56,073 bases of DNA from an uncultured Nitrososphaerota archaeon (GCA_964631995.1 CAZWAU010000057.1:1-56073), one strand, 5' to 3'; shown: positions 1,735 through 41,319, counted from the first letter of the stretch. Program-made: numbers and translations. Notes: generated by a model from the sequence alone, not told the origin.

Positions 1735-2883
1735 TCAACGAAATGTGGATGCAATTTTAAGGGTCCTACCGGTCCTAGATGATTGGATCGACTTTATCAT
1801 TATCTCACTTACGTGCTTTCCCCACTCTATGCTTGGAAGGGGGTCTCTATCGTTAACTATGCAATCCAGAAAATGCTCAGTTGAAGCAATGTAGTAGTTC
1901 CACGCCGGAACCTCCTCTCTAGGAATGTGATACCAGCCTTCAGGTTTGAAATATTTGCTGTCCTCCTTGATTGTAAGGATCGAGAGAGGTGATGGCCCAC
2001 CAATGAATAGAGCACCTTTGTCACCATATATCTCTATGTGTGGCATATTTCCTATACCTCTCCGCAATCCATCTGGCGTTACGAAGTTTGCAATTATGCA
2101 CCCAATGCTTCCGTTCTTCATGTTAAGTAGTGTTAAGGTGTTGTCCTCGGCCCCCATCCTTATCCTTTGGCTTGGCTTTATCGTGTCCAGCCTACTCCAG
2201 AAGGGTTCGTAGGGTTTCCGGGCAAGATGCTCTGTGAAAAATTCGTCTGGGACGATATACCTCTCGGGGATCGAAATCTTTGCGATGCCCGTAACTTTAA
2301 TTGCTGGTCCTAGGAGATATGTCAAGGCAGCAATATCATAAACGCCAAGGTCGTAGAGAGGACCCCCAGCGGTCTTCGTGAAGAACGTCTTCTCGCTCCA
2401 AGTCGGAGGACCTCTACCCAAGCCAGCCCTAAACCAATATATGTCGCCTATCACCTTTTCTTCGAGAATGCTCTTCGCCTTTTTGTACAGGGGATCCTGC
2501 TGGACATTCGGTTCTACGAGAACCTTAACCCCTGCCTTTCTCACTGCCCTATGGACAGCCTCAAGGTCCTTGATGTTCGTGGCCAGTGGTTTCTGAACAA
2601 GCACGTGCTTTCCAGCCCTTGCTGCCTTTGCGACGTGCGCTGCGTGCATCCCCATTCCTGTCAGGACGAAGACCGCCTCGATGTCGGCCTTCCTCAGCAT
2701 GTCTTCAAGGCTCGAGTACCACTCCTTCGCACCCCAGAGCTCCATGCTCCTCTTGGCCCTTTCAGGTATGATGTCGCAGGTGGCCACAAGTTCGGCCTTT
2801 TCCCTTAAAGTTGGAAGATACACCTCGTTGGCTATAACACCACAGCCCAGAACGCCGCACTTCACGCGCCTTTCATTGGACAT
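1735..2883 (-). CDS. Gfo/Idh/MocA family NAD(P)-dependent oxidoreductase
   Basis: It has an N-terminal Rossmann segment VKCGVLGCGVIANEVYLPTL and an EKP-like motif VLVQKPLA. Length is 382 aa. Confidence 0.85.
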   Translation of the reverse strand: MSNERRVKCGVLGCGVIANEVYLPTLREKAELVATCDIIPERAKRSMELWGAKEWYSSLEDMLRKADIEAVFVLTGMGMHAAHVAKAARAGKHVLVQKPLATNIKDLEAVHRAVRKAGVKVLVEPNVQQDPLYKKAKSILEEKVIGDIYWFRAGLGRGPPTWSEKTFFTKTAGGPLYDLGVYDIAALTYLLGPAIKVTGIAKISIPERYIVPDEFFTEHLARKPYEPFWSRLDTIKPSQRIRMGAEDNTLTLLNMKNGSIGCIIANFVTPDGLRRGIGNMPHIEIYGDKGALFIGGPSPLSILTIKEDSKYFKPEGWYHIPREEVPAWNYYIASTEHFLDCIVNDRDPLPSIEWGKHVSEIMIKSIQSSRTGRTLKIASTFR

Positions 2884-3105
2884 TTAATCTTCGCATTCCA
2901 ATCGAATAAACGTTTGATTTAAGGTTATCCCGTCAAGAAAAAACGTTTTTTGGCTTAAGCAATGAAATTGGGCTTAAAACTCTTTTCGTATATCTTTCAG
3001 GCCTATTTCGCTTGAAACAGGCGTTCGAAAATATTGTGAAGAGGATACGATATCGTGAATAATCGGATTCGTGCCTTCAAGCTCTTCGATTCGGAATTGC
3101 ATGAT

Positions 3106-3963
3106 CTAGGCTGAGTCTATCGCTGAGCGCAAGAAGGTAAGTTCCTCCTTCAGTTTTTTCTCCGCTGGCAGATCCCTGAAATCCTCGACAGATATGAACT
3201 TATCATATCCAACAGCCTTCAGATCTTGGATTGCTTGCTTCACATCAAGGAGACCCTCTGCCAGAGGAGTGCCTTCCCAATGCCATCTGATCGTTCCATC
3301 GGCTTGGCGGGGGCCTGGCTTCGGAGCACTCCCCCCAAGATGGACATGACCTACATATGGCCCCAGCAATTCCAGCGCCATCCTGGGATTCTCGTATCCT
3401 TCTTGAATGATATTTGCGAGGTCGTATATGACGCCGATCTCTGATGGCTCGAATTGAGACACGAACCTATGCGCAAGACCGCTGCTCACGAAGATCGTCC
3501 CGACATGCATCTCAATTAAAATTCGGACGCCATAGCTTCTCGTTACGTCCAAAGCTTTCGAGAATGCCTCTGTAGCTTCTGAGAAAAGCTCATTGTAGTT
3601 TGCAGTGCGGTCGTAATTTCTAGGAGCCACTATGCGTATGAATGGAGCTTTAGATCCTGCAGCCCCTCTTGCAAGGAGCTCGACATCCTTCAGATTGTTG
3701 GCTGGCGCGTTGCTAGCTATACCAGCTATCGCGATTTTAAAGCGCTTGGATACGTCGACAAGCTTCTCTGGGTTCTCGGCGAACATCTCGGGGGTATAGT
3801 CGTTCTTGACATTGCCCCAGGGCGTAAAGGGTTGGCCCCTTGCTCCCTCCGGTATTCTCCTAACTCTCCACTCTGCTCCGTCATATCCGAGGCTTGAAAG
3901 TAATGCGGCCGTCTCCTCCATATCATATTGGGGCAGCATTACTGTTGTAGCTGAAATTCTCAA
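3106..3963 (-). CDS. sugar phosphate isomerase/epimerase (xylose isomerase-like TIM barrel)
   Basis: The N-terminus and LIEMHVGT / HVHLGG metal-ligand-like segments are typical of the AP-endonuclease-2/xylose-isomerase TIM family. Confidence 0.8.
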   Translation of the reverse strand: MRISATTVMLPQYDMEETAALLSSLGYDGAEWRVRRIPEGARGQPFTPWGNVKNDYTPEMFAENPEKLVDVSKRFKIAIAGIASNAPANNLKDVELLARGAAGSKAPFIRIVAPRNYDRTANYNELFSEATEAFSKALDVTRSYGVRILIEMHVGTIFVSSGLAHRFVSQFEPSEIGVIYDLANIIQEGYENPRMALELLGPYVGHVHLGGSAPKPGPRQADGTIRWHWEGTPLAEGLLDVKQAIQDLKAVGYDKFISVEDFRDLPAEKKLKEELTFLRSAIDSA

Positions 3964-4420
3964 ATCCTTCGCGGCAAAGATGCTACGCCTCCCTTATCTC
4001 GGTTGCGTTTCCTTTGAAGTGGAATGGTTAAAATCGCAAGCAAAGCCTGGTGTGCGTGTGGGGGCCATTTACCATCATGGTCTTATTGCCTGTGCATCCC
4101 ATCGACACCAATTCCGCTATCCAGATTATCACATGAAGGTTTAGAGGGCCGATGTTGGAAATTTTCGACTAATAAAATTTCACCTAGAGATAAGATATGG
4201 GCAGCGTTGATATTCCAAGGGCGATTGTGCTTTGGTGCTGTCATAAAGTTCCTTCGACGCGTTGGCACCTAGGCACCCTCACCTCCACTGGCAAGAACTT
4301 TCGATGTCGATTCCGAACTATGTTCACTCCATCCTTTGTTGGAAAACTAAATTAAGACCATGCTTCCTCAAGGGCTAAAAAAGGCGTATTGCGGGGGGCA
4401 GTTGACTTATATCCTACCTT

Positions 4421-4693
4421 TTGCCACTCCGCATGGGGTCGAAGTTGACGCTGACGGACCTAGGAATCCTCCTGATCCTCCTCGGCTTCGGCACGGCATT
4501 TGTGGGCGTTCTCTTGTCGATACTCTCCACCCAAAGGGCTCGAGACAAGCAGATCAAGGCGGGTGGCTTTGTAATGATAGGCCCCATTCCGATCGTGTTT
4601 GGTTCTGACAGGAAGTGGATCGGCTTGGCTGCCATACTGGTCATGGCCTTCCTCTTCTTCGTTTTTATCTTGAAGGGAGGTGTCGGTCTTTGA
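4421..4693 (+). CDS. small membrane protein, DUF131/TIGR00304-like
   Basis: It has two TM segments and the motif GGFVMIGPIPIVFGSD. The ATG at 4433 is the more likely start, because a CTTATATCC box lies at 4406-4414. Confidence 0.6.
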   Translation: MPLRMGSKLTLTDLGILLILLGFGTAFVGVLLSILSTQRARDKQIKAGGFVMIGPIPIVFGSDRKWIGLAAILVMAFLFFVFILKGGVGL

Positions 4694-5004
4694 TCGAAAC
4701 TCGCAATGAATTCTCGGAACTGGGATTCAGACTAATTATCCTTGGTTTTGTGCTGAGCCTTATCGGATTCGTACTTGTCGCGATCTCTTCTTATCAGTTG
4801 CCCGACTCTTCAACCTCGACAGCGATCGTGATCTTCATAGGGCCTATACCGATAATTTTGGGAAAAGGTCCACTTTGGTCAGAACTCATTGCCATCGGCC
4901 TCTTCGTGATAGCCCTCATGGTCCTGATATTCGCTTTCCTAAGATCTAGACAGGCAGAACAGGAAGTTGCGCAGGAACCAGTCCGTAAAGAAAGTGTTCG
5001 CTGA
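4690..5004 (+). CDS. second DUF131/TIGR00304-like small membrane protein (tandem paralogue)
   Basis: It carries the same signature (VIFIGPIPIILGKGP). The track ORF starts at 4615 and overlaps the upstream gene. A TTG at 4690 overlaps the upstream TGA (4691-4693) and gives a paralogue-sized product. Confidence 0.55.
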   Translation: MIETRNEFSELGFRLIILGFVLSLIGFVLVAISSYQLPDSSTSTAIVIFIGPIPIILGKGPLWSELIAIGLFVIALMVLIFAFLRSRQAEQEVAQEPVRKESVR

Positions 5005-6596: not shown

Positions 6597-7946
6597 GGTC
6601 CTGTTCAATTGTCGGTTAGGTGTGCTGTGATCGCGGTCAAGCATCTCCTCGGATGGATATATGCCTTCCAGAATGCTTTGTAGAGCTTCGGGTTCGTGTA
6701 CCTCACGAGTATGATGCGGAGCATGTTCTCTAAGCCATCAGTGCTCCAGTGCATCCACCTGTCCTTGCATCTCTTTGCTACCTCTCCCATCAGGCGCTCG
6801 ATTACGTTAGAGGTGTATGGTATGATCTTTCCCTCCAGTGCAAGCTTCGCGAATGTTACCATCAGCATCGCATTCTTAGCTATGAACATCGCAGCTGTTT
6901 TATAGCCATCCCGCTTGAGCTTCCTCGCTATGCTGTAGAGCTTCTTTAGCGTAGCTTTAATCCTCCTCCTGAGCCTGCGCTTGTTCCCATCTGCGAGGTG
7001 CTTTCTGACCGATTTGACGAGCGCGAAGAGCGCGTTCTTCATTCTCTCAGAGATCATATTTCTCTCCTCTTTGCCCATGCCCTCACCCCAGAGCTTGAAG
7101 AGCGTCTCCTTTATCGCGTGCACGATATCGAGCTGCCTTTCCATGTCTCCCTGCAGGCTGAGGTTCATGCTCCTCTCGGCGTCCGACACCATAACCATTG
7201 AGCCCTTCATCACGCGCGATGCAGCGAGCCTCTCGCCGACCTCATCCCAGGATCTGTTCACAGAAGCAGCTAAGAGCCTCTTTGAGCCATCTGCCGGATC
7301 GCAGCCTATTACAACGTTCACCTCGTTCTTCTCCTTTCTGCCTGTGCCGTGCACCTTCGTTCCATCCGATATGATCACTGTGCTCCTGCTCCGCTTCACA
7401 TTCTCCCCGTTTGCCTTGGCTAGCTTAGGCGCTATCTCAGCGAGGAAGCTGTGTACCGTCCTCTTGGGTATGCTAAGGCCTATGGTATTCTCTATCTCCT
7501 CGCTGGCATCTGCATAGGAGAGCCTCGATGCCGCATCCACGCAAAGCATGCGAACGTCGAGCGCGTACTTCCTTCCCCTTATGCCGAGCGCGTCGAGCAT
7601 GGGAGAGCATATCCTGCCGTCTAGCGATGACCTGACCTTCACTACCCTGAGCTCTATTGTGCCTAGCCTGGTAACCAGCCTCCTCCTGTAGCTTCCAGCT
7701 ACATAGAAGGCCCTCCTCCCGTCGCACGCGATGTTGGATAGAGAATCGATCAACTTGTCCTGTTTGTACTCTATCAGGCGCTTCAGCTCATCCTTGCTTT
7801 GGTTGTGGACTTCGTCGGTCATGCTGGAAAGGTCTATATCCAACCGATCGACCTTATTCACCTGGCTTACTTCCTCCTTGTTTTGTGTCACTCACAGCAC
7901 AGGGAGGCTGTAAGCCTCTTAATCTAACCGACTATTGAACGCGACC
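6597..7946 (-). mobile_element. insertion sequence, 1350 bp, single transposase gene
   Basis: The terminal inverted repeats are GGTCCTGTTCAATTGTCGGTTAG (6597-6619) and the reverse complement of 7924-7946, GGTCGCGTTCAATAGTCGGTTAG. They match at 20/23 positions. The element is flanked by a 9-bp direct repeat. Confidence 0.8.
6605..7891 (-). CDS. DDE-type transposase (family not resolvable by eye; IS256/ISH6/ISLre2-like layout)
   Basis: This 428 aa ORF fills the IS. Segments VIISDGTKVHG ... VVIGCD ... VMVSDAERS fit spaced acidic catalytic residues. Its stop lies inside the inverted repeat. Confidence 0.75.
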   Translation of the reverse strand: MTQNKEEVSQVNKVDRLDIDLSSMTDEVHNQSKDELKRLIEYKQDKLIDSLSNIACDGRRAFYVAGSYRRRLVTRLGTIELRVVKVRSSLDGRICSPMLDALGIRGRKYALDVRMLCVDAASRLSYADASEEIENTIGLSIPKRTVHSFLAEIAPKLAKANGENVKRSRSTVIISDGTKVHGTGRKEKNEVNVVIGCDPADGSKRLLAASVNRSWDEVGERLAASRVMKGSMVMVSDAERSMNLSLQGDMERQLDIVHAIKETLFKLWGEGMGKEERNMISERMKNALFALVKSVRKHLADGNKRRLRRRIKATLKKLYSIARKLKRDGYKTAAMFIAKNAMLMVTFAKLALEGKIIPYTSNVIERLMGEVAKRCKDRWMHWSTDGLENMLRIILVRYTNPKLYKAFWKAYIHPRRCLTAITAHLTDN

Positions 7947-7955
7947 AAAATTTTT
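7947..7955. repeat. target-site duplication AAAATTTTT (right copy)
   Basis: It is identical to 6588-6596. Confidence 0.75.
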
Positions 7956-11048: not shown

Positions 11049-11387
11049 ATGTCCGAAAAGGAAACTGGTACAATATTGGTGCTTGTGGTGGTAGCTTTCT
11101 TGGTGCTGTTACCAATTCTTTCTATGAGGTTTTGGAGTTGGAAAATCCCTTGGCGTGGCATGATGGGCATTGCTGGTTACGGCTTGGGCTTTATGTTCAT
11201 AGTTCCACTCTTACTATTTATTTTGATAGTGATCGGTTCTTACCTGTATTTTGGATCCACCAAGGAGTCAAGGGTTCCATTTCCCCCTAAGGAAGGCAGA
11301 GCGATCGAAATTCTGAATGAAAGGTATGCGAAGGGAGAGATCACTAGGGAGGAGTACACGAGGATGAAGGAGGAGTTGCGGAAATGA
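11049..11387 (+). CDS. SHOCT-domain membrane protein
   Basis: It has TM segments followed by the C-terminal ILNERYAKGEITREEYTRMKEEL (SHOCT signature). Confidence 0.7.
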   Translation: MSEKETGTILVLVVVAFLVLLPILSMRFWSWKIPWRGMMGIAGYGLGFMFIVPLLLFILIVIGSYLYFGSTKESRVPFPPKEGRAIEILNERYAKGEITREEYTRMKEELRK

Positions 11388-12010
11388 GCAAGGATGCCAG
11401 GCGAACTGCTGGAGCCCTTTTAATAACTGCCGGAATAGTTGGGCTGATTCTGCTTCCCTACCTGATGTTCGTCGCTTGGAATAGAGGAGTTGCTACGATG
11501 GACGAGGCGGTTAAAATTGCGGAGGATTTCTTGAAGTCGCTGAATAATGAGGATCTGGCAATAGATGAGATCATGGAGTATAGGTACAACTTCTATGTTG
11601 CCTACTATGAAAAGAGCACAGGTATGGGGGCTTTCGAAATGCTGATAGACAAAGCCAGCAATGGCGGAATGATGGGGATGTGGGCGGGCAGCATAAGACC
11701 GGAGCCAGGACCTAACATGATGTGGAATACAAAGTACAGCGCGATGGGAAGCGGAATGATGGTTTGGTCATCTGAAGATAACCAAATCACGGAGGAAAAG
11801 GCGAAGCAGTATGCCCAGAGATATCTTGACAACTACATAACTGGGGCTAAGGCGGAGGATGTGCATAGATTCTACGGATACTATACGATACACGTTGACA
11901 AAGGTGGTAGGAACTATGGTATGCTTAGCGTTAACGCATACACCGGGGATGTCTGGTTCCACGACTGGCATGGAGCATACATCCAGACCAGAGAGATGAA
12001 GGTTGATTGA
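11384..12010 (+). CDS. membrane-anchored hypothetical protein, possibly PepSY-like
   Basis: It has an N-terminal TM and its start overlaps the SHOCT gene stop by 4 nt. The two-lobed pattern (AVKIAEDFL.., AKQYAQRYL.. YTGDVW) resembles PepSY repeats, but this assignment is weak. Confidence 0.4.
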   Translation: MSKDARRTAGALLITAGIVGLILLPYLMFVAWNRGVATMDEAVKIAEDFLKSLNNEDLAIDEIMEYRYNFYVAYYEKSTGMGAFEMLIDKASNGGMMGMWAGSIRPEPGPNMMWNTKYSAMGSGMMVWSSEDNQITEEKAKQYAQRYLDNYITGAKAEDVHRFYGYYTIHVDKGGRNYGMLSVNAYTGDVWFHDWHGAYIQTREMKVD

Positions 12011-12054: not shown

Positions 12055-15000
12055 TTACTTTTTTCTTGCGAATTTCAAGTAAACTAGGAAGATCATGGCT
12101 GAAGCTGCCAACATTGGTATTGCCCCAATGACCCAAGAGCTGATAGGCGAAGATTGGACGTTAACTCTGAGTAGAAGCTGAGGCGATTCAGCACAGCCCG
12201 AGATGGACCTAATACCGATAACATATTCACCGATATCTGTGTTGCTCGGGGACTTGAGCTGAAGCATAATGCTCCCAAATGATCCTGGAGCTAGCTCGTC
12301 TATGTAATTTGGCATGAGTGTAACCTGCCATCCTGAAGGCGCAGATACATCGAGGGTCACGTTTGAGAGCCTAGTCGGACCCACGTTATTCATGGTGGCT
12401 GTTAGCATGGTAATTTCTCCTGGTCTGACTTTCACGTACAGGGTACTGAACTCAAGAGCAAGCTCGTAAAAGCCGGTAATATTGGCTGTGAAAGTCAAAT
12501 TCTGGCATATCCCCTCCTTCGGTTCTACCTCGATTGTAAAGTTGTATGTTCCTACTCCTGCATTTCTTGGTGGAATGGCCTCCAAGTAAAAAAGGGCACT
12601 CTCCCCTGCCTCCAAGAAAGCGGTACGTAAGAATGTTGGGTCTCCAGGAGTTTTTCTGAAAGATAAGTTCCAACCTTCTGGAATGGAAATGAAGGAAAGA
12701 TTGAAAGTCAAATCGTTCGTAGCAATGTTGGTTATTGCCATAGGGAAGTACAAAGTCCTGCCCGTTTTCGCGCTCACCTCTGAATAGAGGGTCGAGATTG
12801 CGAGAGTACGGCATGCCGAGGATGTTCTGGCTGAAGAAAGACGGATGATTATGGGATAGTCTTTAACGAGCAAGTTTCGTATGGTAGTTTTCCCATCTTC
12901 AAAGTTCTTAATGAGATCCTGCTCGAAGCCATGCAGCACGTCGATGCAAGTTGCAACCTCGTTAAATGTGCCATCTATGATCAGCGTGGAATGCACTCCA
13001 TAATCATCTTCGACAGCTAATCCATCTGTCCAAAGTGCGATCAACCTATCGCCATTCGGTAGGATGAAACTGTAGCTCATTATGTTTGTTGCATCGCTCT
13101 CGATATCTGCGGAAAAGTTTCCTATTCTGGCTCCAGCCATTATGGTGCACAATGCACGTATCACTCTTGCGGAAAATCCACTCTGGTCTGATTGGCAAGC
13201 AGCACTAACGGTGACATTCAGGCCCAAATGGGTGATGATGGCCCTTGCGAGATATTTTGCTGCCACCCTTTCGGTTACTGTGGACATTGTGCCATCGCCG
13301 TGAAAAGAATTAGATGGCCACTCGATCTCTTCGGCTAAGTACTCTCCTTTAAAGCCATGCGAGGCTGCCATCCCCATTATCTCCTGCACCATCTGGGGGT
13401 AACTCTTGTAATATTGATCATCTGGTCTGTTGCCATGGAAAGGATGCCAAGAGATCGCATCCACAAGTGGCGCCACTCCAGATCTCAGGAGGGTTTTCAG
13501 GTAATCGATGTGAAGCGTATAGCGCGAAAATTTTTCGTAACCGGATGCCCATTGCCCTCCAGTCGCGCCTACTACGATCTTTGCATCAGGATCTTCCATT
13601 CGAATGATGGGTACAACTAGCTTGATTAGGTTGGCATAATTATCAACCGAAATTCCTCCCCATGGCGTATCTGTGTCAGGTTCGTTCCACAACTCGTAAT
13701 ACTTTACGCGGCCTTTGAAATGGCTAACCACGAAACGCACATAGTTTGCATATCTCTCGATCTCCTCCTTGGAAGAGAACCTAGTATAGTCAGGTCGGTC
13801 CTCTCCTGTTCCAACGCCAAGATTTAGCATAATGGAAACGCCATTATCGGCTAAGCTTGAGATGAAAGTTTCCACTTCTGGATCGATGGCGTAATTGCCT
13901 TTTTCCTTTTCTACATTCTGCCAATTTAATGGATTGCCCAAGCCATCATAGGCAAATCGAACCCACTTCAGACCGATCCGGAGAAGTGTTTCCTTGCCGA
14001 TGCTAACACCATAACTTAAATCCACTCCAATTCTGTTATCATCGATGTCATAAGACCATTTTGTCAATATCGACCTCCTGTGAAGGTCATTTCCATCCTG
14101 AAGGCAGAGAGAAATACCTTGACCACCTGTGGGCGATGAGAACTTGCTTGTGTCACCATCTTCGTCTGTTACAGTGGCTGTAAGGCGAGGACCTGAAAAA
14201 GAGGCGCCTTTATCGAGCAAGAAGAAACCTGTATCATCGGACTTCGTCCGACCTTCGTAGATGGCTCCCTCATCATTACTATCAGAAAATATCTCCACAA
14301 AGCAATTTGGACTAGCTACTCCCAAAGCCGTCCCAGCTCTTAGGTCGAAATCGATGATCATTGGAGGGGTTATTTCCTCATTACCGAAGTCGCACAGCCA
14401 GATACCTGTTCCGCTATTGTTGTAGATGCTGTTGCGGATGAACGTGTTATGTAGCGAATAAGAGCGCACACTTATGCCATTACCGTTGTTGTCGTGGATT
14501 CTGTTTTGAACGATTGTGTTGCGCATCGAATTTGAGCAAATGCCTATACCGTGTCCTCCGTTGAATGCAATTATGTTGTTAGGGCCGATGACATTGCAGC
14601 TTGCACGATCGATGACGATGCCCGAGTTGCGGTTGCCCAGCCTCAAGATGCCATTCAAATCTGTTCCAATGCGGTTTCCAACAAATGTGTTGTAACTTTC
14701 ATTGTTATTGCCAATGTATACTCCATTAAGATTCCCACAGATCAGATTATCGATGACCTTGTTGTGATGTGGCCCATTTATGTGGATGCCATCTCTGAGT
14801 TTGCCCCATGATACTGTTCCACTTAGGTCTGTGCCGATGTAGTTGCCCTGTATCGTATTGAAGGAAGTTTCCAAGTCCCAAAGACCAATGCCAAAGTTTC
14901 CTTCTCCGCTGATTAGATTTCCCTGGCCCAGTGGACCAGCGCCAATGTTTCGATCCCCTCCGATTATGTTGTTCCGTGCTCCCCCATAGAGAGCTATGCA

Positions 15001-15945
15001 GGAACCCGGAAAGTTGATGATCTGCAAACCTCTAATTATGTTTTCACTCGATCTTATCGAGAGTCCATTGACCCACTGCTCCGAGTGCGAGAACCCAAGC
15101 TCGAGAGCAATACCGATGACGCCAGAAGGGATTGTCTGGCTTGTAGTGGCCTTCGTCCAGTCTTCCATTCTGTCGAACCACTTTGAATGAATATTTTCCA
15201 TATGCCCGTCGGAGAAGAGAGCATTCAGCCAGACTGAAAAACCCCCGTACCTGTACCAAAGGCTAAGTTCAACCGTTTCGCCACTGACCAAAGGTATCCA
15301 GACTGTGCTTTCCCGGTAGTAAGGCCAATAGTAAGCCCTGTTTGGAAACGGGTAGCTAGTGCTGTTTGTATCATATACCAAATGGCTCTCGCCCACCTGT
15401 GCCACAGTTGTCCACTCGTAGCTCTGAGGTGAGGAATGGTAATCGCTGTACCTCAAATGCCTAGTTGCGCCTGGGGCATCATCCCAAGGTCGCCAGTGAA
15501 CTGAGCCTGAGGAAAAGTCACCGTTTGAAATGAGGTTCGGACCGCCATCTACCTTCAAGCTAATGTCATCCAAAAGCAAAGTTTCAGGTCTTCTTCCAAT
15601 CCCACTTCCATCCAAGATAACGCCAGCGTTACTGCCATCGATCGTCAACCTGCCCTGTGAGATCTCTGGAAGGCCGCTGGTGACAGCGATTGTTGTGGGC
15701 CTACTTGGAGGGAAAACCTCCGGATCGAATATGATTGTGTCTCCTCGCCTTGCGTCATGAAGCGCTTGGCGCAAAGTACCCGAGCCTGAGTCGGCGGCGC
15801 TTGTCACCACTAGAATTGTGGCAGGGCTTTGCTGCGCGATCAAGGGCACATTATCTAGTAGTAAATCACAAGATACGAAACGAGTGGTTAAAGAGAAAAG
15901 AAGAACAGATATTGTGACCAAGCCAAACATCTGACGGGCCAACAT
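12055..15945 (-). CDS. large cell-surface protein: parallel beta-helix repeats + clan GH-A glycoside hydrolase-like domain + two NEW3/COG1470-like domains + C-terminal TM anchor
   Basis: The start at ATG 15945 has GGGAGG 9 nt upstream and a signal-like MLARQMFGLVTISVLLFSL. PbH1-type repeats (NIIGGD..GNLISG..GNYIG..) are present. YYELWNEPDT is a GH-A acid/base motif. The C-terminus is VIGAIPMLAASAMIFLVYLKFARKK. Confidence 0.8.
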   Translation of the reverse strand: MLARQMFGLVTISVLLFSLTTRFVSCDLLLDNVPLIAQQSPATILVVTSAADSGSGTLRQALHDARRGDTIIFDPEVFPPSRPTTIAVTSGLPEISQGRLTIDGSNAGVILDGSGIGRRPETLLLDDISLKVDGGPNLISNGDFSSGSVHWRPWDDAPGATRHLRYSDYHSSPQSYEWTTVAQVGESHLVYDTNSTSYPFPNRAYYWPYYRESTVWIPLVSGETVELSLWYRYGGFSVWLNALFSDGHMENIHSKWFDRMEDWTKATTSQTIPSGVIGIALELGFSHSEQWVNGLSIRSSENIIRGLQIINFPGSCIALYGGARNNIIGGDRNIGAGPLGQGNLISGEGNFGIGLWDLETSFNTIQGNYIGTDLSGTVSWGKLRDGIHINGPHHNKVIDNLICGNLNGVYIGNNNESYNTFVGNRIGTDLNGILRLGNRNSGIVIDRASCNVIGPNNIIAFNGGHGIGICSNSMRNTIVQNRIHDNNGNGISVRSYSLHNTFIRNSIYNNSGTGIWLCDFGNEEITPPMIIDFDLRAGTALGVASPNCFVEIFSDSNDEGAIYEGRTKSDDTGFFLLDKGASFSGPRLTATVTDEDGDTSKFSSPTGGQGISLCLQDGNDLHRRSILTKWSYDIDDNRIGVDLSYGVSIGKETLLRIGLKWVRFAYDGLGNPLNWQNVEKEKGNYAIDPEVETFISSLADNGVSIMLNLGVGTGEDRPDYTRFSSKEEIERYANYVRFVVSHFKGRVKYYELWNEPDTDTPWGGISVDNYANLIKLVVPIIRMEDPDAKIVVGATGGQWASGYEKFSRYTLHIDYLKTLLRSGVAPLVDAISWHPFHGNRPDDQYYKSYPQMVQEIMGMAASHGFKGEYLAEEIEWPSNSFHGDGTMSTVTERVAAKYLARAIITHLGLNVTVSAACQSDQSGFSARVIRALCTIMAGARIGNFSADIESDATNIMSYSFILPNGDRLIALWTDGLAVEDDYGVHSTLIIDGTFNEVATCIDVLHGFEQDLIKNFEDGKTTIRNLLVKDYPIIIRLSSARTSSACRTLAISTLYSEVSAKTGRTLYFPMAITNIATNDLTFNLSFISIPEGWNLSFRKTPGDPTFLRTAFLEAGESALFYLEAIPPRNAGVGTYNFTIEVEPKEGICQNLTFTANITGFYELALEFSTLYVKVRPGEITMLTATMNNVGPTRLSNVTLDVSAPSGWQVTLMPNYIDELAPGSFGSIMLQLKSPSNTDIGEYVIGIRSISGCAESPQLLLRVNVQSSPISSWVIGAIPMLAASAMIFLVYLKFARKK

Positions 15946-16030
15946 TTCCTTTCGCCTCCCTTTGTGCAAATGAATGCTAGTATCCATCCTAACCTTTTGT
16001 GGTTGAGATCTTCTCCACATCCTCATGTCC

Positions 16031-16975
16031 CTATGTCTTTTCCTCGACCTCCACTCCTCGCACACTCAAGATCAGGCAAGAGACTGTCAAAGTTGCCACC
16101 AACATACAAACAATAGCAGAGAAGCATGGCCATACGTTCTTCAACGTCACAAAGATGTCCAATGGAAGTGGTTGTGCTGTCATAGATGTGAATGGTGGAG
16201 CGTCGATCATTGGATTGAGTAGAGCACTTGCTCCTTCGACGAAAACCGCTGATGGGGAAAGCCAGTTAATGTATCCCGCGATACTTCCCCTAAGGTCTAA
16301 GATGGCCCCAAACCATGGGTCTCCTACGATTCGATACGATGGAAGAGGTGCAAGCAGGTTTGATAGGGCAACGGACGTTGCATACCATGCTGAAAAAGAA
16401 ACAAGAAGAAAGATCGAGAAGAATAGCGAACTCGAAAGGCTGTTCGCTACCGAAGAAATCAGGATGCTGATAGATATCCAAAATGAGACATATATTAGAA
16501 GCATTCCTGTGAAAGCCGTTATCCTCGCCAGCTCCTCGATGCTGAATGAACCTATCAGAGCGATCGTCAGACCTCCTGCGATTAGGACAGCCGATAAAGA
16601 TACGATGGATACTGCAGCTAGGCCGCCCAAAAATTTACCGATCACGATCGATACCTTCGATATCGACCTTACCAGAAACAACTGCATCGTTCCAGTTTTT
16701 CTTTCACGAACGATTGTGTCAAAACTAATGGCGATCGAAAGGAAGGGAAGCATGGCATTAGACACAATCCAGACACTTGAGGAAAAGGCTGAGAGGGACG
16801 TAGGTTCGATGCCCTCTCCCTTGCCATACAGCTCTATCTGCTTGCGATGGGTTAGGAAAGACTCGTATGCGCCTGTTAGGGAAAGTAAAATTGTGAGTAA
16901 AAATCCTAGTAAAAAGCGGCGACTTCTCAAAATGGATCGGATTTCCTTTCCAGCTATAGTTAGCATCTCACCCAA
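16031..16975 (-). CDS. ABC-2 type transporter permease
   Basis: It is polytopic, with the motif FDTIVRERKTGTMQLFLVRSISK typical of ABC-2 permeases. Its start overlaps the upstream stop by 8 nt. Confidence 0.8.
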   Translation of the reverse strand: MGEMLTIAGKEIRSILRSRRFLLGFLLTILLSLTGAYESFLTHRKQIELYGKGEGIEPTSLSAFSSSVWIVSNAMLPFLSIAISFDTIVRERKTGTMQLFLVRSISKVSIVIGKFLGGLAAVSIVSLSAVLIAGGLTIALIGSFSIEELARITAFTGMLLIYVSFWISISILISSVANSLSSSLFFSIFLLVSFSAWYATSVALSNLLAPLPSYRIVGDPWFGAILDLRGSIAGYINWLSPSAVFVEGASALLNPMIDAPPFTSMTAQPLPLDIFVTLKNVWPCFSAIVCMLVATLTVSCLILSVRGVEVEEKT

Positions 16976-19900
16976 TTTCTTGCCTCTCCGTTTCTATGAC
17001 AGCCTCAACCATTCCCTTCTTTAGTGACAATATTTTATTACAAAATTTTAATTCTTGAGCGTTTCTCCCGGTACATATGATCGTAAGGCCTTCCCATCGA
17101 CTTAGGTTCTTCAATAGAACCTCAACCCCCTTTGCCTCCTGATCTTTCAAACCAGCTAGCGGCTCCTCGAGAAGTAGGAGCGACGGCCTTTTGATGAGCG
17201 CTTGAACGATCATGAGCTTTCTTTTAATCTCCTGATTAAGATTTGATGCTTTTTTGTCTGCATGCTGCGTTAAGTTGTACTTCTCTAGTAAATCATTGAT
17301 GGTGTTCTCATCTACATTTCCATCCAGCTTGCCCAAAAAGAGGAGGTTCCACCTAGGGGAGAACTGCCCATAGAGTTCTGTGCGATTAAGAAGAAGCCCG
17401 ATGGAATCTTTGATCTCACTTCTCCTACTATAGGTGTCGATGCCATCCAGAGTTACAGAGCCACTGGTTGGCTTGAAAAGTCCTGCAATAGCTAAAATTA
17501 GGGCTCTTCTGCCTTCTCCAACCAAGCCGATTATTTCGCCTCTCATTGCGCTCATACTGATTCCCCTTAGGACTGGCTTTCCTCCCGCGAAGAGACTTAT
17601 GTTCTCGACCCGTAAAAGCTCTCTCGTTCGGCCCCATCTTACAGATGAAGGGACGGCTGCCCACTGGAGCATGAGACGGCGAACAGCTGAGGCTGTTTTT
17701 TTAACAACTTCCATCGGCTCGTAGTTGTAGAGCATGGCTATCTTGATGACGAGATCCATCGAGTATGTAGAAGAGCCCCTGCTTCTCGTCAGAGCCAATT
17801 CATTCTCGGTCCTAAATGCCCTCGATCCTTCCTGTGCAAAGCTGTGTGAGAAAAGCAGTTTCTTCACCTCCTTCTCCTGGTCAGATTCCTCAACTATCTC
17901 CTTGAACTCCATCTTCTCAGGTATCGTGTGCATCATTTGCATCTCCTCGAATTTTTCTTGTACAAACCTGAAGAAGCGCCTTAGCTCTATTTGCGAAACC
18001 AGTTGGGGAACGTGGAGAAGCCACATATCCTTCGCAGCTGGAATGTAATCGAGCTTCCACTTCAGGGGAAGCTTCGGGGTCGCTATTGTCGACGCTTTCA
18101 TAGCTGGCAGAACGGATGCTGAAATGGCTATCGTAACAGCCATTACTATGATAGCAATGCTCCATGTCCAAGATACCTTCTCGGTAAGGAAACCTTGACC
18201 CCCAACGCTAAGCAGAAACCTCGGCACGCCAACACCGAACAGATATCCGATTATGCCTCCTATGAAAGCCACTAGCCCTGACTCGGCAAGAAACACATAA
18301 CTTATCTGCGAAGGATTGAGGCCTACTAAAGAAAGCGTTGCAATTTCCCTCTTCCTTTCGTAGACCGCATTAAGCGTGCACGCCAAAACGTTTAGCCCCA
18401 CAAGAGCCAGCACCATAGGCAAGGTGGTGCCACCCAGAAGAAACAGATCTTTCCTGTAATGGAAAAGTTTGACTCCTTCGCCTGCTGATGCATAGACAAA
18501 GTAACGCCACTTGCGGGCTAGCTCAGTAGCAAGAGGCGTTATGTCATTAGCACTAATTGTCTTGACATCTATTCTTGTCAGTTCACCGAGCTTAAGCTTG
18601 ATGAGTTCCTGCCAGTTGAATACGACCACGTTTTCTGGACTGAGGTAGACCTTTTCCCTCTCCATGAAAATATAGGGCCTTATCGGTTGGCCGTCAAAAT
18701 CAACGATCCCCTCGAGCATCTGGTCATCCAAAATGCCCGCGACCATGTACTCGGTCACGATGGTTCCAGTCCCTGATGCCCAAGCAAACTTCACTTTTCC
18801 ACCAGGAGCGATGCCTAGCTGGTTCGCAGCACGTTTTGATATTAGAATTGCATGCTCATCCTCGGTAAAGTAGTGCCCCTCGATGACAGCAGCATCGAGA
18901 TTGTTGATATTCGCTTCATCGCCAGAGACTCCGATCGCACCCCTGATCGGAACTTTTCGGCCATCCTCGCCAATCAGCTGGGCCTCTAAGTAGTAGGGGC
19001 TTGTTTCTGTCTTTGGTGCGACTGAGACCACCAAGGGATTCGCCCTCAGGGCCTCAACGAGAGACATCGAAAGCGGATTGGGAGTTGTTCGGCCTGGCGG
19101 AGGAACTACCATAAGACCCGTTGGCGGGTTTGATTTAGGATAAGGCGAAGCTGGGCGTCCAAAAGCCACGTCCGCCTGTATTCGAAATGAAGTGAAAATC
19201 ATGAATCCAAAGACAAATGTCAAGATCGATGCTAGCATCAGCGACGATCTCATCTTCCTCCTCTTCAAATTTCGCGTTGCAAGCGAGAACGTGGACATCA
19301 AGCTTGATGCTAAGGCAATGCCTGATTGTGTAACGACATCCTTTCCAACGCGTGGTAACAAAAGAACTAAACCGATGGCTAGTGCTGCAGCTGCTGCGTT
19401 CGACATTGCAAGAAAAATTGGATCGGTTAATCTTAAGCCTGGCGACACGTAGTAGTAGAATGCGAGGAAGGACAGGCTGATCAGCAGTCCTGCCCCTATT
19501 CTTGATCCTTCCTTCTCGACGAAGATACTCGCTAAGCCGAAGCCAGAGAGCATGAGGAGGAATGAGAGGGGGATTGGGGAGAAAGTTGCATCAGACAAGA
19601 TGCTTTCCAACCTGTTTCGAACATCCATATCCATAATGTAAGCAGCCCTCAGATTGATGAAACAATTTGAGTAGAAACGCTTACGTAGCGCCAGTCTTGC
19701 CAAATCTAGATAGCTGAATGCCGTTTCTAAATCTCCTATTTCGGGCGTGACGACGATTCCATTGAGGCCCATTTCCTTGGCCTTTAACCATGTTGAGGTC
19801 AATCCATTTCTGACAAAGTCAACATTCCTGTTCATTACCGCCCAGCTTAAATCGACCGTTGTGACGCTTCCTTTGGGAAATTTGAAGAAGTTTCCATCAT

Positions 19901-20645
19901 CGTCAATGATGAACCTGCTCCCCGACGATTCGCAGTACAAAAGTATCGGCATGTCGGAAGGTACTACTACGAGTCCGGGCTCGAGACCTAGTACCTTGGA
20001 AATTTCGGGATCAAAGTTCGTTAGGGTTTGGTTCAACAATGGAGCACCATAATATCCTTCTATAAAGCCAAAGCACAAATCTTCTGGAACTCTGCCCAAT
20101 TCGACAAATTCTACCGATCCTGTGAAAAAGACCGAAGCGCCAGGGTGAAGTTGAAAATTGGCGACTATGTTTTTAAAAGCTGAACCAGGCTGCGTCAAGT
20201 CAAGTTGCAGGAACCCTATGATGTAGTCTTTGCCAGGAGTTTCAGGATAGTCAACCAAGACTGCCATCGAGTAATGACCTATGTTTAGTTTTACACTGTA
20301 ATGCCCTGTTTCGTTTGTGTAAATGGATGAATCGTACCGATTCTGTAATTGGTTACCCACATAGCTCCAGCCCCATATGCGTATGGTCGCGCCACCAATA
20401 GGTTTACCAACTAGAGCATCTGTAACAACTCCAGTGATGCTCATCTCCTGTTGAGGGCGCACTACCGAGATTTGTACCACTAAGGTTGTTACAGCGATAA
20501 AAGCTAAGAGCTTAATGTGCCGATTGCAGTATCCAACCATTTGAGTTTGTAGGTGATGAGGGAGCTCATAGTGGTCCATTAATGGTCTTGTAAAACAGAT
20601 CAATGCTGTGAGCATGCGCGGGTAGATGGCCGAGTATTCTAGCAT
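16968..20645 (-). CDS. MacB/FtsX-type permease with CarboxypepD_reg-like ectodomain, fused to a degenerate ABC nucleotide-binding domain
   Basis: SITGVVTDALVGKPIGGATIRIWGW indicates a carboxypeptidase-regulatory-like fold. ATRNLKRRKMRSSLMLASIL is a MacB TM1 signature. The FtsX domain reads YERKREIATLSLVGLNPSQISYVFLAE. The last 216 aa align to an ABC NBD but with altered motifs (see findings). Confidence 0.8.
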   Translation of the reverse strand: MLEYSAIYPRMLTALICFTRPLMDHYELPHHLQTQMVGYCNRHIKLLAFIAVTTLVVQISVVRPQQEMSITGVVTDALVGKPIGGATIRIWGWSYVGNQLQNRYDSSIYTNETGHYSVKLNIGHYSMAVLVDYPETPGKDYIIGFLQLDLTQPGSAFKNIVANFQLHPGASVFFTGSVEFVELGRVPEDLCFGFIEGYYGAPLLNQTLTNFDPEISKVLGLEPGLVVVPSDMPILLYCESSGSRFIIDDDGNFFKFPKGSVTTVDLSWAVMNRNVDFVRNGLTSTWLKAKEMGLNGIVVTPEIGDLETAFSYLDLARLALRKRFYSNCFINLRAAYIMDMDVRNRLESILSDATFSPIPLSFLLMLSGFGLASIFVEKEGSRIGAGLLISLSFLAFYYYVSPGLRLTDPIFLAMSNAAAAALAIGLVLLLPRVGKDVVTQSGIALASSLMSTFSLATRNLKRRKMRSSLMLASILTFVFGFMIFTSFRIQADVAFGRPASPYPKSNPPTGLMVVPPPGRTTPNPLSMSLVEALRANPLVVSVAPKTETSPYYLEAQLIGEDGRKVPIRGAIGVSGDEANINNLDAAVIEGHYFTEDEHAILISKRAANQLGIAPGGKVKFAWASGTGTIVTEYMVAGILDDQMLEGIVDFDGQPIRPYIFMEREKVYLSPENVVVFNWQELIKLKLGELTRIDVKTISANDITPLATELARKWRYFVYASAGEGVKLFHYRKDLFLLGGTTLPMVLALVGLNVLACTLNAVYERKREIATLSLVGLNPSQISYVFLAESGLVAFIGGIIGYLFGVGVPRFLLSVGGQGFLTEKVSWTWSIAIIVMAVTIAISASVLPAMKASTIATPKLPLKWKLDYIPAAKDMWLLHVPQLVSQIELRRFFRFVQEKFEEMQMMHTIPEKMEFKEIVEESDQEKEVKKLLFSHSFAQEGSRAFRTENELALTRSRGSSTYSMDLVIKIAMLYNYEPMEVVKKTASAVRRLMLQWAAVPSSVRWGRTRELLRVENISLFAGGKPVLRGISMSAMRGEIIGLVGEGRRALILAIAGLFKPTSGSVTLDGIDTYSRRSEIKDSIGLLLNRTELYGQFSPRWNLLFLGKLDGNVDENTINDLLEKYNLTQHADKKASNLNQEIKRKLMIVQALIKRPSLLLLEEPLAGLKDQEAKGVEVLLKNLSRWEGLTIICTGRNAQELKFCNKILSLKKGMVEAVIETERQEIG

Positions 20646-28139: not shown

Positions 28140-29663
28140 TCATTTTCCTGCAATTCTTTTATCAGCATTGGCAAGTATGTTCTCGATCTGTCTTGCTGTT
28201 GCCTGATCGATCTGTGGCACAGGTTGATGCTCCTTCAATATTCTATCGACTTCCCGCTTGGCCCTAGGAAGAACATCCTCCTTTCCAGCTTTCGCCCAGG
28301 CCTCGTACCTCTGCCTGTCGAGTAGTTTTGAGAGGTATACCATCTCCCTGTTTCTTCGCAGCGTCAAGGAGTCGGAGAGATAGTTGCCCTTCGAAATCCC
28401 ACGTTCCATGATTTGCAGTTCAAAATCGATCTGTTCAGAAGGAATGCCTCGTTGCAACCTCTTCAACAACTCAACGATCTCGTTGTCTATCACAAGTTGT
28501 TCGAAGCAAAAGATCTGGTCTGAATCGACTTGCCCGGCTGGGCCCAAAGTTGTAGCTCCAGCAAGAACAGCCAATGTGGCTGTCAAAGTCTTTTCGATTG
28601 CAGCCTGGATTCCGGGCATCTTTGCATCGGTGCGAAGCGCGCGTGTGCCCCAAACCGGGATTCCGTAGTACTCCCTGATGAACTGGGACTCTGCCAGACC
28701 AACCAAAGCTGTCTCGGGAGCGGCATATAGGTGGCGGAGGTTGCGTGGGTCGGAGAGCATCACGTCGAGAGCCCAGCAGTGCTTTAAGCATACCCCGAGA
28801 CACCAAGAGGGAGCCGGCACCAGATCTGGATTCGCGAGCTCAGTCAGGTACAGACCTGGAACTATCTCGGCCACGTTCTGAGCAATCGCAGCTGGAATCG
28901 ACATTGGTGCCGTTACACCCGGCTGTGGCATGGAACCGATGGAAAAAGCTGGCAAACCAAGTTCCGAGTAGTAGAGGAGAAGGTCGATTACTCGGTCGTC
29001 GTATATGAGAGGCGAGATCGCCTCTAAAAGGGCTGTGTGCCTTGGCCTTTTCCTGAGCTCTTCCATTCCACCAGCCAAAACCTTTTCCACCTCTACCGCG
29101 ATCCTAGCCATCTCAAGGTCTATTATGTGGATCCACGCGATTGGCTTCGATGTAGTTTGGGCGAGGATCGCGAGGGCGTGGAGGCCCCTCGTCTTTGCTG
29201 GAGCATCGTGGGGGGTAATTGGCACTCCAACGATCTTTATGTTATCGAGGGAGTCTGCAAGGATTCCAGCTCTGGCTACGTCGTCTTTGGTTGCGTAGCG
29301 TCGTTCCAGCCTCTCGAGGTCGAAGATGTAATCATTTACTGTTCCAGTTATCATCTCCTGCAAAAGGATGGGGCCAAGGGAGAAGAAGATGCTTTCACCC
29401 ATCTTAATGTATTGCTTACGGTCCTGGTAGTAGAGCTTCAGATCTCTTCCAGTGCTTTTCCTGATTATGTCCTCGGAAAGGCTTCGGGGGATCTTCAACC
29501 TGCTTTTGCTCTCGTCAAAGGAGCATCCCCCGTCTTTGAGAAGACCAATTGCTCTTGGATGAGTTATGCGCACACCGATCTTTTCAAGTATCTGTAAGAA
29601 AAGTTCATGAATACCGTCCATCTCGGCTTCGTTAAGAATACGAAGCATCGACTCTGTTCTCAA
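28140..29663 (-). CDS. MttB-superfamily methyltransferase, non-pyrrolysine type
   Basis: It shows N-terminus-to-C-terminus collinearity with the trimethylamine methyltransferase family (ILNEAEMDGIHELFLQILEKIGVRI..). The frame is uninterrupted, with no in-frame TAG. ATG 29648 is an alternative start to TTG 29663. Confidence 0.8.
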   Translation of the reverse strand: MRTESMLRILNEAEMDGIHELFLQILEKIGVRITHPRAIGLLKDGGCSFDESKSRLKIPRSLSEDIIRKSTGRDLKLYYQDRKQYIKMGESIFFSLGPILLQEMITGTVNDYIFDLERLERRYATKDDVARAGILADSLDNIKIVGVPITPHDAPAKTRGLHALAILAQTTSKPIAWIHIIDLEMARIAVEVEKVLAGGMEELRKRPRHTALLEAISPLIYDDRVIDLLLYYSELGLPAFSIGSMPQPGVTAPMSIPAAIAQNVAEIVPGLYLTELANPDLVPAPSWCLGVCLKHCWALDVMLSDPRNLRHLYAAPETALVGLAESQFIREYYGIPVWGTRALRTDAKMPGIQAAIEKTLTATLAVLAGATTLGPAGQVDSDQIFCFEQLVIDNEIVELLKRLQRGIPSEQIDFELQIMERGISKGNYLSDSLTLRRNREMVYLSKLLDRQRYEAWAKAGKEDVLPRAKREVDRILKEHQPVPQIDQATARQIENILANADKRIAGK

Positions 29664-41174: not shown

Positions 41175-41319
41175 TGCGGAGAGTGGGATAACTGGAGGCT
41201 TCGAACCTCTCTCGGACCCACGATCCCCTTCGGGACAGGGTTCTAAGCCCTGCGCGTTAACCAAGCCTCGCGGCCATGACCCCCTGACCCTGGGGCACAC
41301 GTTCTTTCGCTATCTCCGC
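41175..41319 (-). tRNA. tRNA-Leu (anticodon TAG) gene, 145 nt, interrupted by two insertions at non-canonical positions
   Basis: The minus strand reads GCGGAGA-TA-GCG-[39 nt]-AGGCTTGGTTAA-CGC-G-CAGGG-CTTAGAA-CCCTG-TCCCGAAGGGGATC-GTGGG-[29 nt]-CCCAC-TCTCCGC-A. The acceptor stem is perfect (7 bp). The anticodon and T stems are 5 bp each, and there is a type II variable arm. No CCA is encoded. Removing the two insertions gives about 84 nt. Confidence 0.65.

Follow-up and report, generated by a model that had tools for sequence, protein, structure and literature searches.

Membrane domains of the FtsX type and of the ABC-2 type both belong to exporter or actuator classes of ATP-binding cassette (ABC) systems. 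NosDFY, which serves N2O-reductase maturation with an ABC-2 permease of PF12679, an active NosF ATPase and the extracytoplasmic partner NosD, a right-handed β-helix with a His-Met-Met site and NosY-binding elements that is anchored at the permease, acts by actuating its partner and not by transport. The YtrBCDEF system of Bacillus subtilis is mixed: one operon encodes an FtsX/MacB_PCD protein (YtrF), other ABC membrane proteins, of which YtrC and YtrD are of ABC-2 type, and two apparently intact, separate nucleotide-binding domains (NBDs). Its wall-thickening phenotype survives deletion of either NBD, and a non-transport, protein-modulating role has been proposed for it from the phenotype of these deletions (PMC8060467). 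Type VII systems (MacB, FtsEX-EnvC/PcsB/CwlO, LolCDE, YbbAP-TesA) share an FtsX module served by a cognate intact NBD of MacB/FtsE/LolD type, which is either fused at the N-terminus or encoded adjacently, and YbbAP-TesA is a type VII system that works with a hydrolase (PMC12646458). A further system is an operon encoding, in this order, a NEW3-repeat protein, a DrrA-type ABC ATPase and a PF12679 ABC-2 permease; the literature searched (COG1470, NEW3 domain, NEW3 with ABC-2) yielded no functional study of it. Here we describe a three-gene locus that resembles each of these systems in part, and that derives in part from the last. It lies on a 56,073-nucleotide stretch of DNA (CAZWAU010000057.1:1-56073, called the window below) from an uncultured Nitrososphaerota archaeon, which we take to be a hot-spring Brockarchaeota archaeon.

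The three genes, here named A, B and C, are all on the minus strand; their coordinates are given in Table 1. According to Pfam, the A protein contains MacB_PCD (residues 510–709, 1.6e-7), FtsX (744–854, 2.4e-14) and ABC_tran (1026–1163, 6e-13) domains. B is ABC2_membrane_2 (PF12679, the NosY family; 1e-25) and has the six transmembrane (TM) helices of an ABC-2 permease. C matches Beta_helix (2.8e-10), NosD (4e-9) and NEW3 (1.7e-12), with a weak match to GH39 (1e-3; 18.3 bits, against a cut-off of 26). A and B overlap by exactly 8 nt (16968–16975, TTGGGTGA, stop/start). This overlap is retained in eight of nine related loci, which argues for coupled translation of A and B. An initial annotation of this DNA had proposed such a layout, with the 8-nt overlap and a gap of 85 nt before C, and had assigned the domains and joined FtsX-type and ABC-2-type permease architectures in one envelope module; the open reading frames (ORFs), the start of C, the Pfam and NCBIfam matches and the conserved overlap all bear this out.

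The most unusual part of the locus is the ABC domain at the C-terminus of A. Its best family matches are DrrA, GldA, NodI, ABCA and NosF, which are ABC-2-class and not MacB-class ATPases, so that the description of A as a MacB/FtsX-type permease holds for its membrane part and fails for its NBD. The NCBIfam drrA model gives it 88.7 bits, against 238 bits for the ATPase of a canonical NEW3-ATPase-ABC-2 trio. The motifs of 23 distinct relatives were compared with the canonical ATPase from a related contig. Walker A, GPNGSGKT in the canonical protein, is GEGRR in 22 of the 23 and GEGGR in the other; Walker B, canonically FDEP, is LEDP or LEEP (LLLEEP in the window); and the signature FSRGMRQR is LNQEIKRK in the window and LSxGDKRK in some clades. 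The D-loop and the H-loop histidine, both present in the canonical protein, are lost, and all 23 lack a proper signature, D-loop and H-loop. The replacement motif GEGRRAL is itself conserved. In the AlphaFold2 (AF2) model, assigned by DSSP, the strand IIGLVG (1038–1043) is followed by two coil residues (EG) and directly by the helix RRALILAI, with no phosphate-binding loop left. The Walker A loop is three residues short; HMMER places this 3-residue gap slightly upstream of the AF2 position, and the Lys-to-Arg and Thr-to-Arg changes stand under both alignments. The domain is thus predicted to be catalytically dead, as had been judged by eye, and the proviso that it might be a normal ATPase misread falls with the degenerate motifs in every copy.

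The domain nevertheless shows signs of being maintained. The ABC fold is retained, with Foldseek TM-scores of 0.7–0.84 (target-normalised) and a root-mean-square deviation of 2.1 Å to the ABC ATPases 4yer and 1vpl, and with NosF among the matches. Ratios of non-synonymous to synonymous substitution (dN/dS) are 0.11–0.39 for the NBD and 0.08–0.23 for the core of A, and all 23 distinct copies read through the NBD in frame. In a phylogenetic tree these domains are monophyletic with respect to the canonical ATPase. The intact fold, the dN/dS values and the single clade together indicate a maintained pseudo-enzyme rather than a decaying relic, and we refer to it as the pseudo-NBD. Degenerate sites with conserved non-consensus motifs that function without hydrolysis occur in TAP1/2, TM287/288, CFTR and ABCG5/G8. 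There, however, the P-loop is intact, binds ATP and is paired with a consensus site, whereas the pseudo-NBD has a truncated P-loop and lacks a consensus partner encoded in its vicinity; the 56-kb window contains no second ABC NBD.

The origin of the pseudo-NBD, B and the anchor of C, which was overlooked in the initial annotation, emerges from comparison with the canonical trio. Eight close homologues of B were found, beyond which identity falls from ~50% to 27% for the nearest outside relatives. These are encoded in NEW3-ATPase-ABC-2 operons on two metagenome contigs. The same trio occurs on the Brockarchaeota contig L027, 5.5 kb from an A gene, and is annotated on plasmids of Sinorhizobium fredii (NXT3_RS20805-20815) and Bacteroides finegoldii (UHF62_RS00180-00190). 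Its ATPase is intact (GPNGSGKT, FSRGMRQR, DEP, H). B aligns end to end with the Sinorhizobium and Bacteroides permeases, with 22 invariant columns, and a gene for a NEW3 protein directly follows B in all nine related loci. The stalk of C shares 44–52% identity with the short NEW3 proteins that related triads encode, and 35% with the trio protein of L027; the last NEW3 repeat, an S-x-W motif, the TM helix and a KF.R[KR] tail (KFARKK after the helix in the window) match the trio NEW3 proteins of L027 and L078, bacterial-like ones included. Given the alignment of B, the drrA type of the NBD and the match of the C anchor, NBD, B and C are a rearranged trio whose ATPase has been fused to FtsX and disabled. 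The gene order differs, NEW3 being last in the window and first in the trio; the ATPase is FtsX-fused and has lost all its catalytic motifs, where that of the trio is separate and intact; and the NEW3 protein has been enlarged by β-helix and glycosidase-like heads. The system derives from the NEW3-ATPase-ABC-2 operon while breaking with its defining feature, the separate intact ATPase.

The bacterial trios lie at 1916–4945 of the S. fredii plasmid pSfreNXT3a (L080) and at 2071–4918 of the B. finegoldii plasmid (L081). The former adjoins genes for GroEL, a Do-family protease and DnaJ/CbpM, and the latter PepSY-like proteins and a two-component system. These neighbours hint at a possible role of the canonical trio in envelope stress.

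The third gene varies between loci. In five of the nine related triads it encodes 519–528 residues of NEW3 repeats only. In L048 it encodes 994 residues with a β-helix and NEW3 but without a glycosidase domain, while L023 has, as in the window, the full β-helix, clan GH-A (glycoside hydrolase clan A) and NEW3 arrangement. In L024 and L026 the contig ends after the β-helix part. The β-helix part of the window protein recurs in L024, L026 and L048 at 65% identity, and its occurrence coincides with one pseudo-NBD clade (window/L023, L026, L048). Clan GH-A enzymes are TIM barrels with the acid/base Glu in an NEP motif and the nucleophile Glu on strand 7. The NEP motif (YYELWNEPD) of the barrel aligns with 5jvk and with GH10/GH39 enzymes, whereas the GH39 profile match is below cut-off, and the domain is a putative glycosidase. 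The enzyme head of C thus appears to be an optional add-on, only the NEW3 stalk and the TM anchor being constant, and the earlier view of a surface enzyme as the partner of the module does not hold across the family.

Gene A encodes a lineage-private membrane protein. Hydropathy predicts a signal anchor, a 295-residue ectodomain, three TM helices, FtsX TM1, a 255-residue MacB_PCD ectodomain, TM2 to TM4 and ~375 cytoplasmic residues. The FtsX module of four helices, with an extracytoplasmic domain between TM1 and TM2, is present, and FtsX and MacB_PCD both score above the curated cut-offs; a match of the N-terminal ectodomain to PF13620 (1.2e-5) is under its cut-off. The loop between TM2 and TM3 (YER.rEIatLSLVGLNPSQI) is invariant in the family, including members that lack the NBD, and occupies the position of the major coupling helix of MacB-type proteins. 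As a query it also retrieved NBD-less homologues from Bathyarchaeia. The cytoplasmic α/β domain that follows TM4 found only 16 matches in 1.84 billion representatives, no Pfam match, and no Foldseek match in the PDB below E 1e-3. A fold assignment was dropped, the best Foldseek candidates (SRPBCC/Bet v 1 and PsbP-like) having TM-scores of at most 0.4.

Full-length relatives of A form ~23 clusters among 5.8 billion proteins, all from Brockarchaeota/Thermoproteota metagenome bins. From GTDB genomes and JGI metagenomes, 72 loci were recovered by scanning, and those from Brockarchaeota were sorted by tblastn and ORF clustering into three classes. Class 1 has A with the NBD, followed by B and a NEW3 protein (10 distinct loci, including the window); class 2 has A with the NBD and neither B nor C within 1.3–8 kb downstream (14 distinct loci); and class 3 has A without NBD, B or C (~10 distinct loci). 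Conservation of the triad, which had been put forward as a check on the module, is therefore partial: it holds in 10 of the 24 NBD-bearing loci, whereas the other 14 lack B and C beside A. More distant homologues of A in Bathyarchaeia (~26% identity over residues 50–1000) are NBD-less, and no ABC ATPase was found within 8–10 kb of these core genes.

A second family of giant FtsX-domain proteins was seen in Bathyarchaeia (L011-L016, L060, L069-L071), mostly of 1553–1570 residues with conserved neighbours of 635 and ~660 residues, again with no ABC ATPase within 8–10 kb. FtsX proteins without an ATPase may be common in these archaea. Two more distant matches of the first search (P0041, P0045) bear a Peptidase_M28 domain.

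The locus can now be set against the described systems. With type VII systems it shares the FtsX module, a MacB_PCD domain between TM1 and TM2 and the TM2-TM3 loop, and, like FtsEX and YbbAP-TesA, it is encoded beside a putative extracytoplasmic hydrolase (PMC12646458). It differs in having no MacB/FtsE-type ATPase, its sole NBD being C-terminal, DrrA-type and dead; in the three extra TM helices, the additional N-terminal ectodomain and the private cytoplasmic domain of A; and in being archaeal, with an optional hydrolase partner that is a membrane-anchored NEW3-stalk protein. Since the cognate active NBD is lacking, the system is type VII-like but not a member. It likewise differs from ABC-2/type V exporters (the DrrAB, NosFY and Wzm-Wzt class), whose competent DrrA-type NBD it retains as a fold only. 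With NosDFY it has in common the PF12679 permease, the NosF-like fold and, in the window, a right-handed β-helix. Membership was rejected: an active NosF ATPase is missing, and the β-helix is absent from five of the nine related triads and so is not a conserved partner. From YtrBCDEF it differs in that the Ytr system is bacterial, with its two NBDs apparently intact and separate, and has no NEW3 or glycosidase partner.

On the basis of these observations, we tentatively propose that the module works without ATP, as a scaffold on which the pseudo-NBD attaches B and C to A; it would anchor or organise polysaccharide-active surface proteins, and would not be a transporter powered by its own NBD. 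We read the three genes as one operon for a 'pseudo-ABC' envelope complex, in which two older units have been joined. One is the lineage-private membrane protein of ~950 residues, in which the FtsX/MacB four-helix module is accompanied by three extra TM helices, by two large ectodomains and by a cytoplasmic α/β domain peculiar to it; Bathyarchaeia and Brockarchaeota also encode this protein by itself, without an ATPase near it. The other is the canonical operon, whose ATPase became the C-terminal domain of the first unit, losing every catalytic motif and part of its P-loop while its fold was kept under purifying selection. The pseudo-NBD would no longer bind or hydrolyse ATP, and would be retained as an adaptor that docks on B from the cytoplasmic side, tethering B to A and, through B, the NEW3 stalk and TM anchor of C. 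The complex would hold the stalked protein beside the ectodomains of A, a static positioning of a glycan-active protein, with an exchangeable head on C that may be NEW3 repeats only, a β-helix, or a β-helix with a clan-A glycosidase as in the window. That B is the likely docking site is suggested by the FtsX loop: it is invariant even without an NBD, so its partner would not be the pseudo-NBD. A mixed FtsX system that acts independently of an NBD has a precedent in YtrBCDEF (PMC8060467).

Several points weigh against this scaffold. In fourteen of the 24 NBD-bearing relatives of A, neither B nor C is encoded in cis; there the pseudo-NBD must either serve some role without them or have a partner in trans. 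A half-intact signature (LSxGDKRK) persists in several clades, and a purely static role would be unusual for two transporter-type membrane domains. The full-length AF2 model of A has a predicted TM-score (pTM) of 0.34 and TM helices below 50 in predicted local distance difference test (pLDDT), for which reason its inter-domain contacts were left unused. No motif of the whole family is more strongly conserved than the TM2-TM3 loop, which lies at the MacB coupling-helix position and would fit a real ATPase encoded elsewhere. This is the main rival, which we hold somewhat less likely than the scaffold: either the pseudo-NBD on B would be paired with a DrrA-type ATPase, or the FtsX loop would be the docking site of an ATPase of MacB/FtsE type, and ATP would drive the ectodomains of A and the NEW3-stalk protein. 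It amounts to the mechanotransducer regulating a surface enzyme of the initial annotation with an energy source supplied, a source that was not found in the 56-kb window. In its favour are the invariance of the loop in NBD-less members, the retained half-signature, the presence on L027 of a class-2 A gene and a full canonical trio 5.5 kb apart, and the fact that the characterised type VII systems and NosDFY all actuate an extracytoplasmic partner by ATP (PMC12646458). Against it, Walker A and the window signature (LNQEI) are both degenerate, which would leave a heterodimer without an intact composite ATP site, and the private cytoplasmic domain directly follows TM4, where an NBD would dock. 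NBD genes usually adjoin their permease genes, and no second NBD was found in the window, in the flanks of other triad loci with scan matches, or near the Bathyarchaeia core genes. A more elaborate mechanism seems improbable to us, namely that an entire ABC machine has been exapted to work independently of ATP, and that the pseudo-NBD bridges type VII FtsX and type V ABC-2 folds while the private α/β domain, with its faint START/Bet v 1 likeness, drives the FtsX coupling loop, so that a cytoplasmic ligand and not ATP would gate the ectodomains and a stalked glycanase with swappable heads. Import was discounted in the initial annotation, and we agree: both permease classes are of exporter or actuator kind, and no binding protein was seen either in the Pfam scan of the neighbours, which covered part of the ORFs, or in the gene list of the collinear contig L077.

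The remaining explanations are less probable still. That there is no functional module, with the NBD decaying and the three genes neighbours by history only, would suit a neighbourhood that is not universal (B and C in 10 of 24 NBD-bearing loci) and a B lineage that diverges so far (~50% down to 27%) from other ABC-2 permeases. It is already disfavoured, and we hold it quite improbable, given the purifying selection on 23 in-frame NBD copies noted above, the conserved GEGRRAL motif and 8-nt overlap, the NEW3 gene that always accompanies B, and the 22 columns B shares with canonical permeases. A possible artefact must also be considered, since the nearest relative of the window switches sharply inside A, at 17770–17950: from 20685 down to ~17770 the window matches L044/L022 at 97–100%, and from ~17950 downstream it matches L023 at 97–99%. 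Contig L022 ends at window position 17758, exactly at the junction, and between L044 and L023, both from metagenome Ga0078972, the core and the set of NBD, B and C seem to have been exchanged reciprocally. These observations would fit an assembly chimera with an artificial pairing of FtsX core and NBD, B and C. We nonetheless rate a chimera as highly improbable, because the independent 77.5-kb contig L077, which is 97.5% identical throughout, carries the same join; because the pairing in the window is the one that agrees with the phylogeny, its core clade, its NBD clade and its β-helix C all matching L024 and L026; and because the same architecture (A with NBD, B, NEW3) is present in nine other loci regardless. 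The shared join and the phylogenetic agreement suggest that the arrangement in the window is probably genuine, and L044 and L023 are then either recombinants between paralogues or misassemblies. The mosaic was first held to prove mobility of an NBD, B and C cassette. This argument now carries less weight: the DNA at the junction is the most conserved of all, which favours recombination and misassembly alike, and a single metagenome is the source of both L044 and L023. The functional argument does not rest on it. Least credible to us is a cofactor delivery of NosDFY type, in which the β-helix partner would receive a metal or sulfur species and pass it on to a surface enzyme. The domain sets are parallel: B is in the Pfam family of NosY, one B homologue is labelled 'multi-copper enzyme maturation permease' by JGI, the NBD matches NosF, and C matches NosD. 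The NosD match, however, spans only 80 residues of generic β-helix repeats (profile positions 81–160), the β-helix is dispensable and the ATPase dead, no NosZ or NosL family and no other nos context was present among the neighbours scanned or annotated, and the canonical partner of B's permease subfamily is the NEW3 protein, not NosD.

Table 1 Features of the three-gene locus, in window coordinates. AF2, AlphaFold2; aa, amino acids.
Feature	Residues	Coordinates	Strand	Description	Basis
Gene A		16968–20645	−	1225 aa; FtsX/MacB-type envelope protein with C-terminal pseudo-NBD	ORF; Pfam FtsX, MacB_PCD, ABC_tran; ~23 full-length homologues
A, N-terminal ectodomain	63–357	19575–20459	−	CarboxypepD_reg-like β domain, second β domain, three-helix bundle	Hydropathy; AF2 pLDDT 70–95
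A, extra TM helices	358–434	19344–19574	−	Three helices before the FtsX module	Hydropathy; AF2 helical, low confidence
A, MacB_PCD domain	488–743	18417–19184	−	Porter/Sabre-like extracytoplasmic domain	Pfam; AF2 α/β, pLDDT 70–88
A, FtsX TM2–TM4	744–854	18084–18416	−	FtsX helices, with the invariant TM2–TM3 loop	Pfam FtsX; invariant columns
A, cytoplasmic α/β domain	855–1008	17622–18083	−	Family-private; β-β-α-β4-α	AF2 pLDDT 81, pTM 0.75
A, mosaic junction	~900–960	17770–17950	−	Sharp switch of nearest relative	Sliding identity
A, pseudo-NBD	1009–1225	16971–17621	−	DrrA/ABCA/NosF-type ABC fold	NCBIfam drrA; PDB profile; Foldseek; motif comparison; DSSP; dN/dS
Gene B		16031–16975	−	314 aa, TTG start; ABC-2 permease of PF12679	ORF; Pfam; eight close homologues
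Shine-Dalgarno-like GGAGG		15955–15959	−	10–14 nt upstream of the ATG of C at 15945	Read directly from the sequence
Gene C		12055–15945	−	1296 aa; signal peptide, variable head, NEW3 stalk, C-terminal TM anchor	ORF; hydropathy; Pfam
C, β-helix head	45–636	14038–15813	−	Right-handed, CASH/NosD-like, with inserted β-sandwich	Pfam
C, TIM-barrel	637–931	13153–14037	−	Clan GH-A-like; YYELWNEPD motif	PDB 5jvk (5e-9); weak GH10/GH39/GH5 matches
C, stalk and anchor	932–1296	12058–13152	−	NEW3 Ig-like repeats, S-x-W, TM helix, KF.RK[KR]	Pfam NEW3

Some details of the gene boundaries deserve comment. Met36 of A, at nt 20540, may be its true start. The longest ORF of C begins with GTG at 16065, while the ATG at 15945 opens a signal peptide. 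The ATG is the better start, given the upstream GGAGG, the signal peptide and the same call by the gene caller in L077, and it yields the 85-nt gap and a C protein of 1296 residues. An antisense ORF of 341 residues (15999–17024, plus strand) overlies B, and in the record of L077 an antisense ORF of 244 residues is annotated in place of B, leaving the permease out of the gene list; Pfam, the homologues and synteny show that B is the real gene. The gene of ~200 residues that lies upstream of A, and that encodes a PA14 membrane protein in the window, was considered as a fourth member of the module and excluded, as it is not conserved across loci.

The neighbouring genes have a carbohydrate flavour, with an AXE1/glucuronoyl-esterase-like protein, a GHL6 protein and the PA14 membrane protein identified from the Pfam scan and the annotation of L077. 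Just downstream of C there is a weakly PepSY-like gene of 208 residues (11384–12010). The intergenic segment 20782–21068, which separates a 110-residue gene from the promoter region of A, does not align with L077, L022 or L044, whereas the sequence on either side is ~97% identical. A short piece has thus been replaced or affected by an indel here, a little upstream of a TATA-like CTTATAAAAAG at ~20700. A stretch of 1.3 kb (6602–7947) containing a Mutator-family transposase ORF (6605–7891, minus strand; Pfam 3.4e-9) is missing from the collinear, 97.5%-identical L077, and looks like an insertion sequence polymorphism between populations. Elsewhere the window encodes a NurA/HerA pair (29875–33586, plus), a family-B DNA polymerase (47991–50213, minus) and an MttB-family methyltransferase homologue (28140–29663, minus; 8e-52), the last of which agrees with proposals that Brockarchaeota are methylotrophic. 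The sole tRNA (Leu; 41184–41277, minus) has 94 nt, longer than usual even for class II, and on account of this length may carry an intron. No RNA element was matched by Rfam in the window.

If the proposed scaffold is true, the pseudo-NBD would be a clear natural case of an ABC NBD that has persisted over millions of years as a structural adaptor and nothing else, and its retention would bear on how assembly and energy coupling are divided among the parts of an ABC system. The fusion also acts as a 'Rosetta stone', linking an orphan archaeal FtsX family to the widespread and unstudied NEW3-ATPase-ABC-2 operon of rhizobia, Bacteroides and archaea. It thereby points to a role in the envelope or with surface proteins for that operon, and offers an entry to experiments in tractable bacteria. 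Brockarchaeota are known from metagenomes only and have been proposed to degrade polysaccharides (PMC8065059); the locus suggests how they may mount glycan-active enzymes on their surface.

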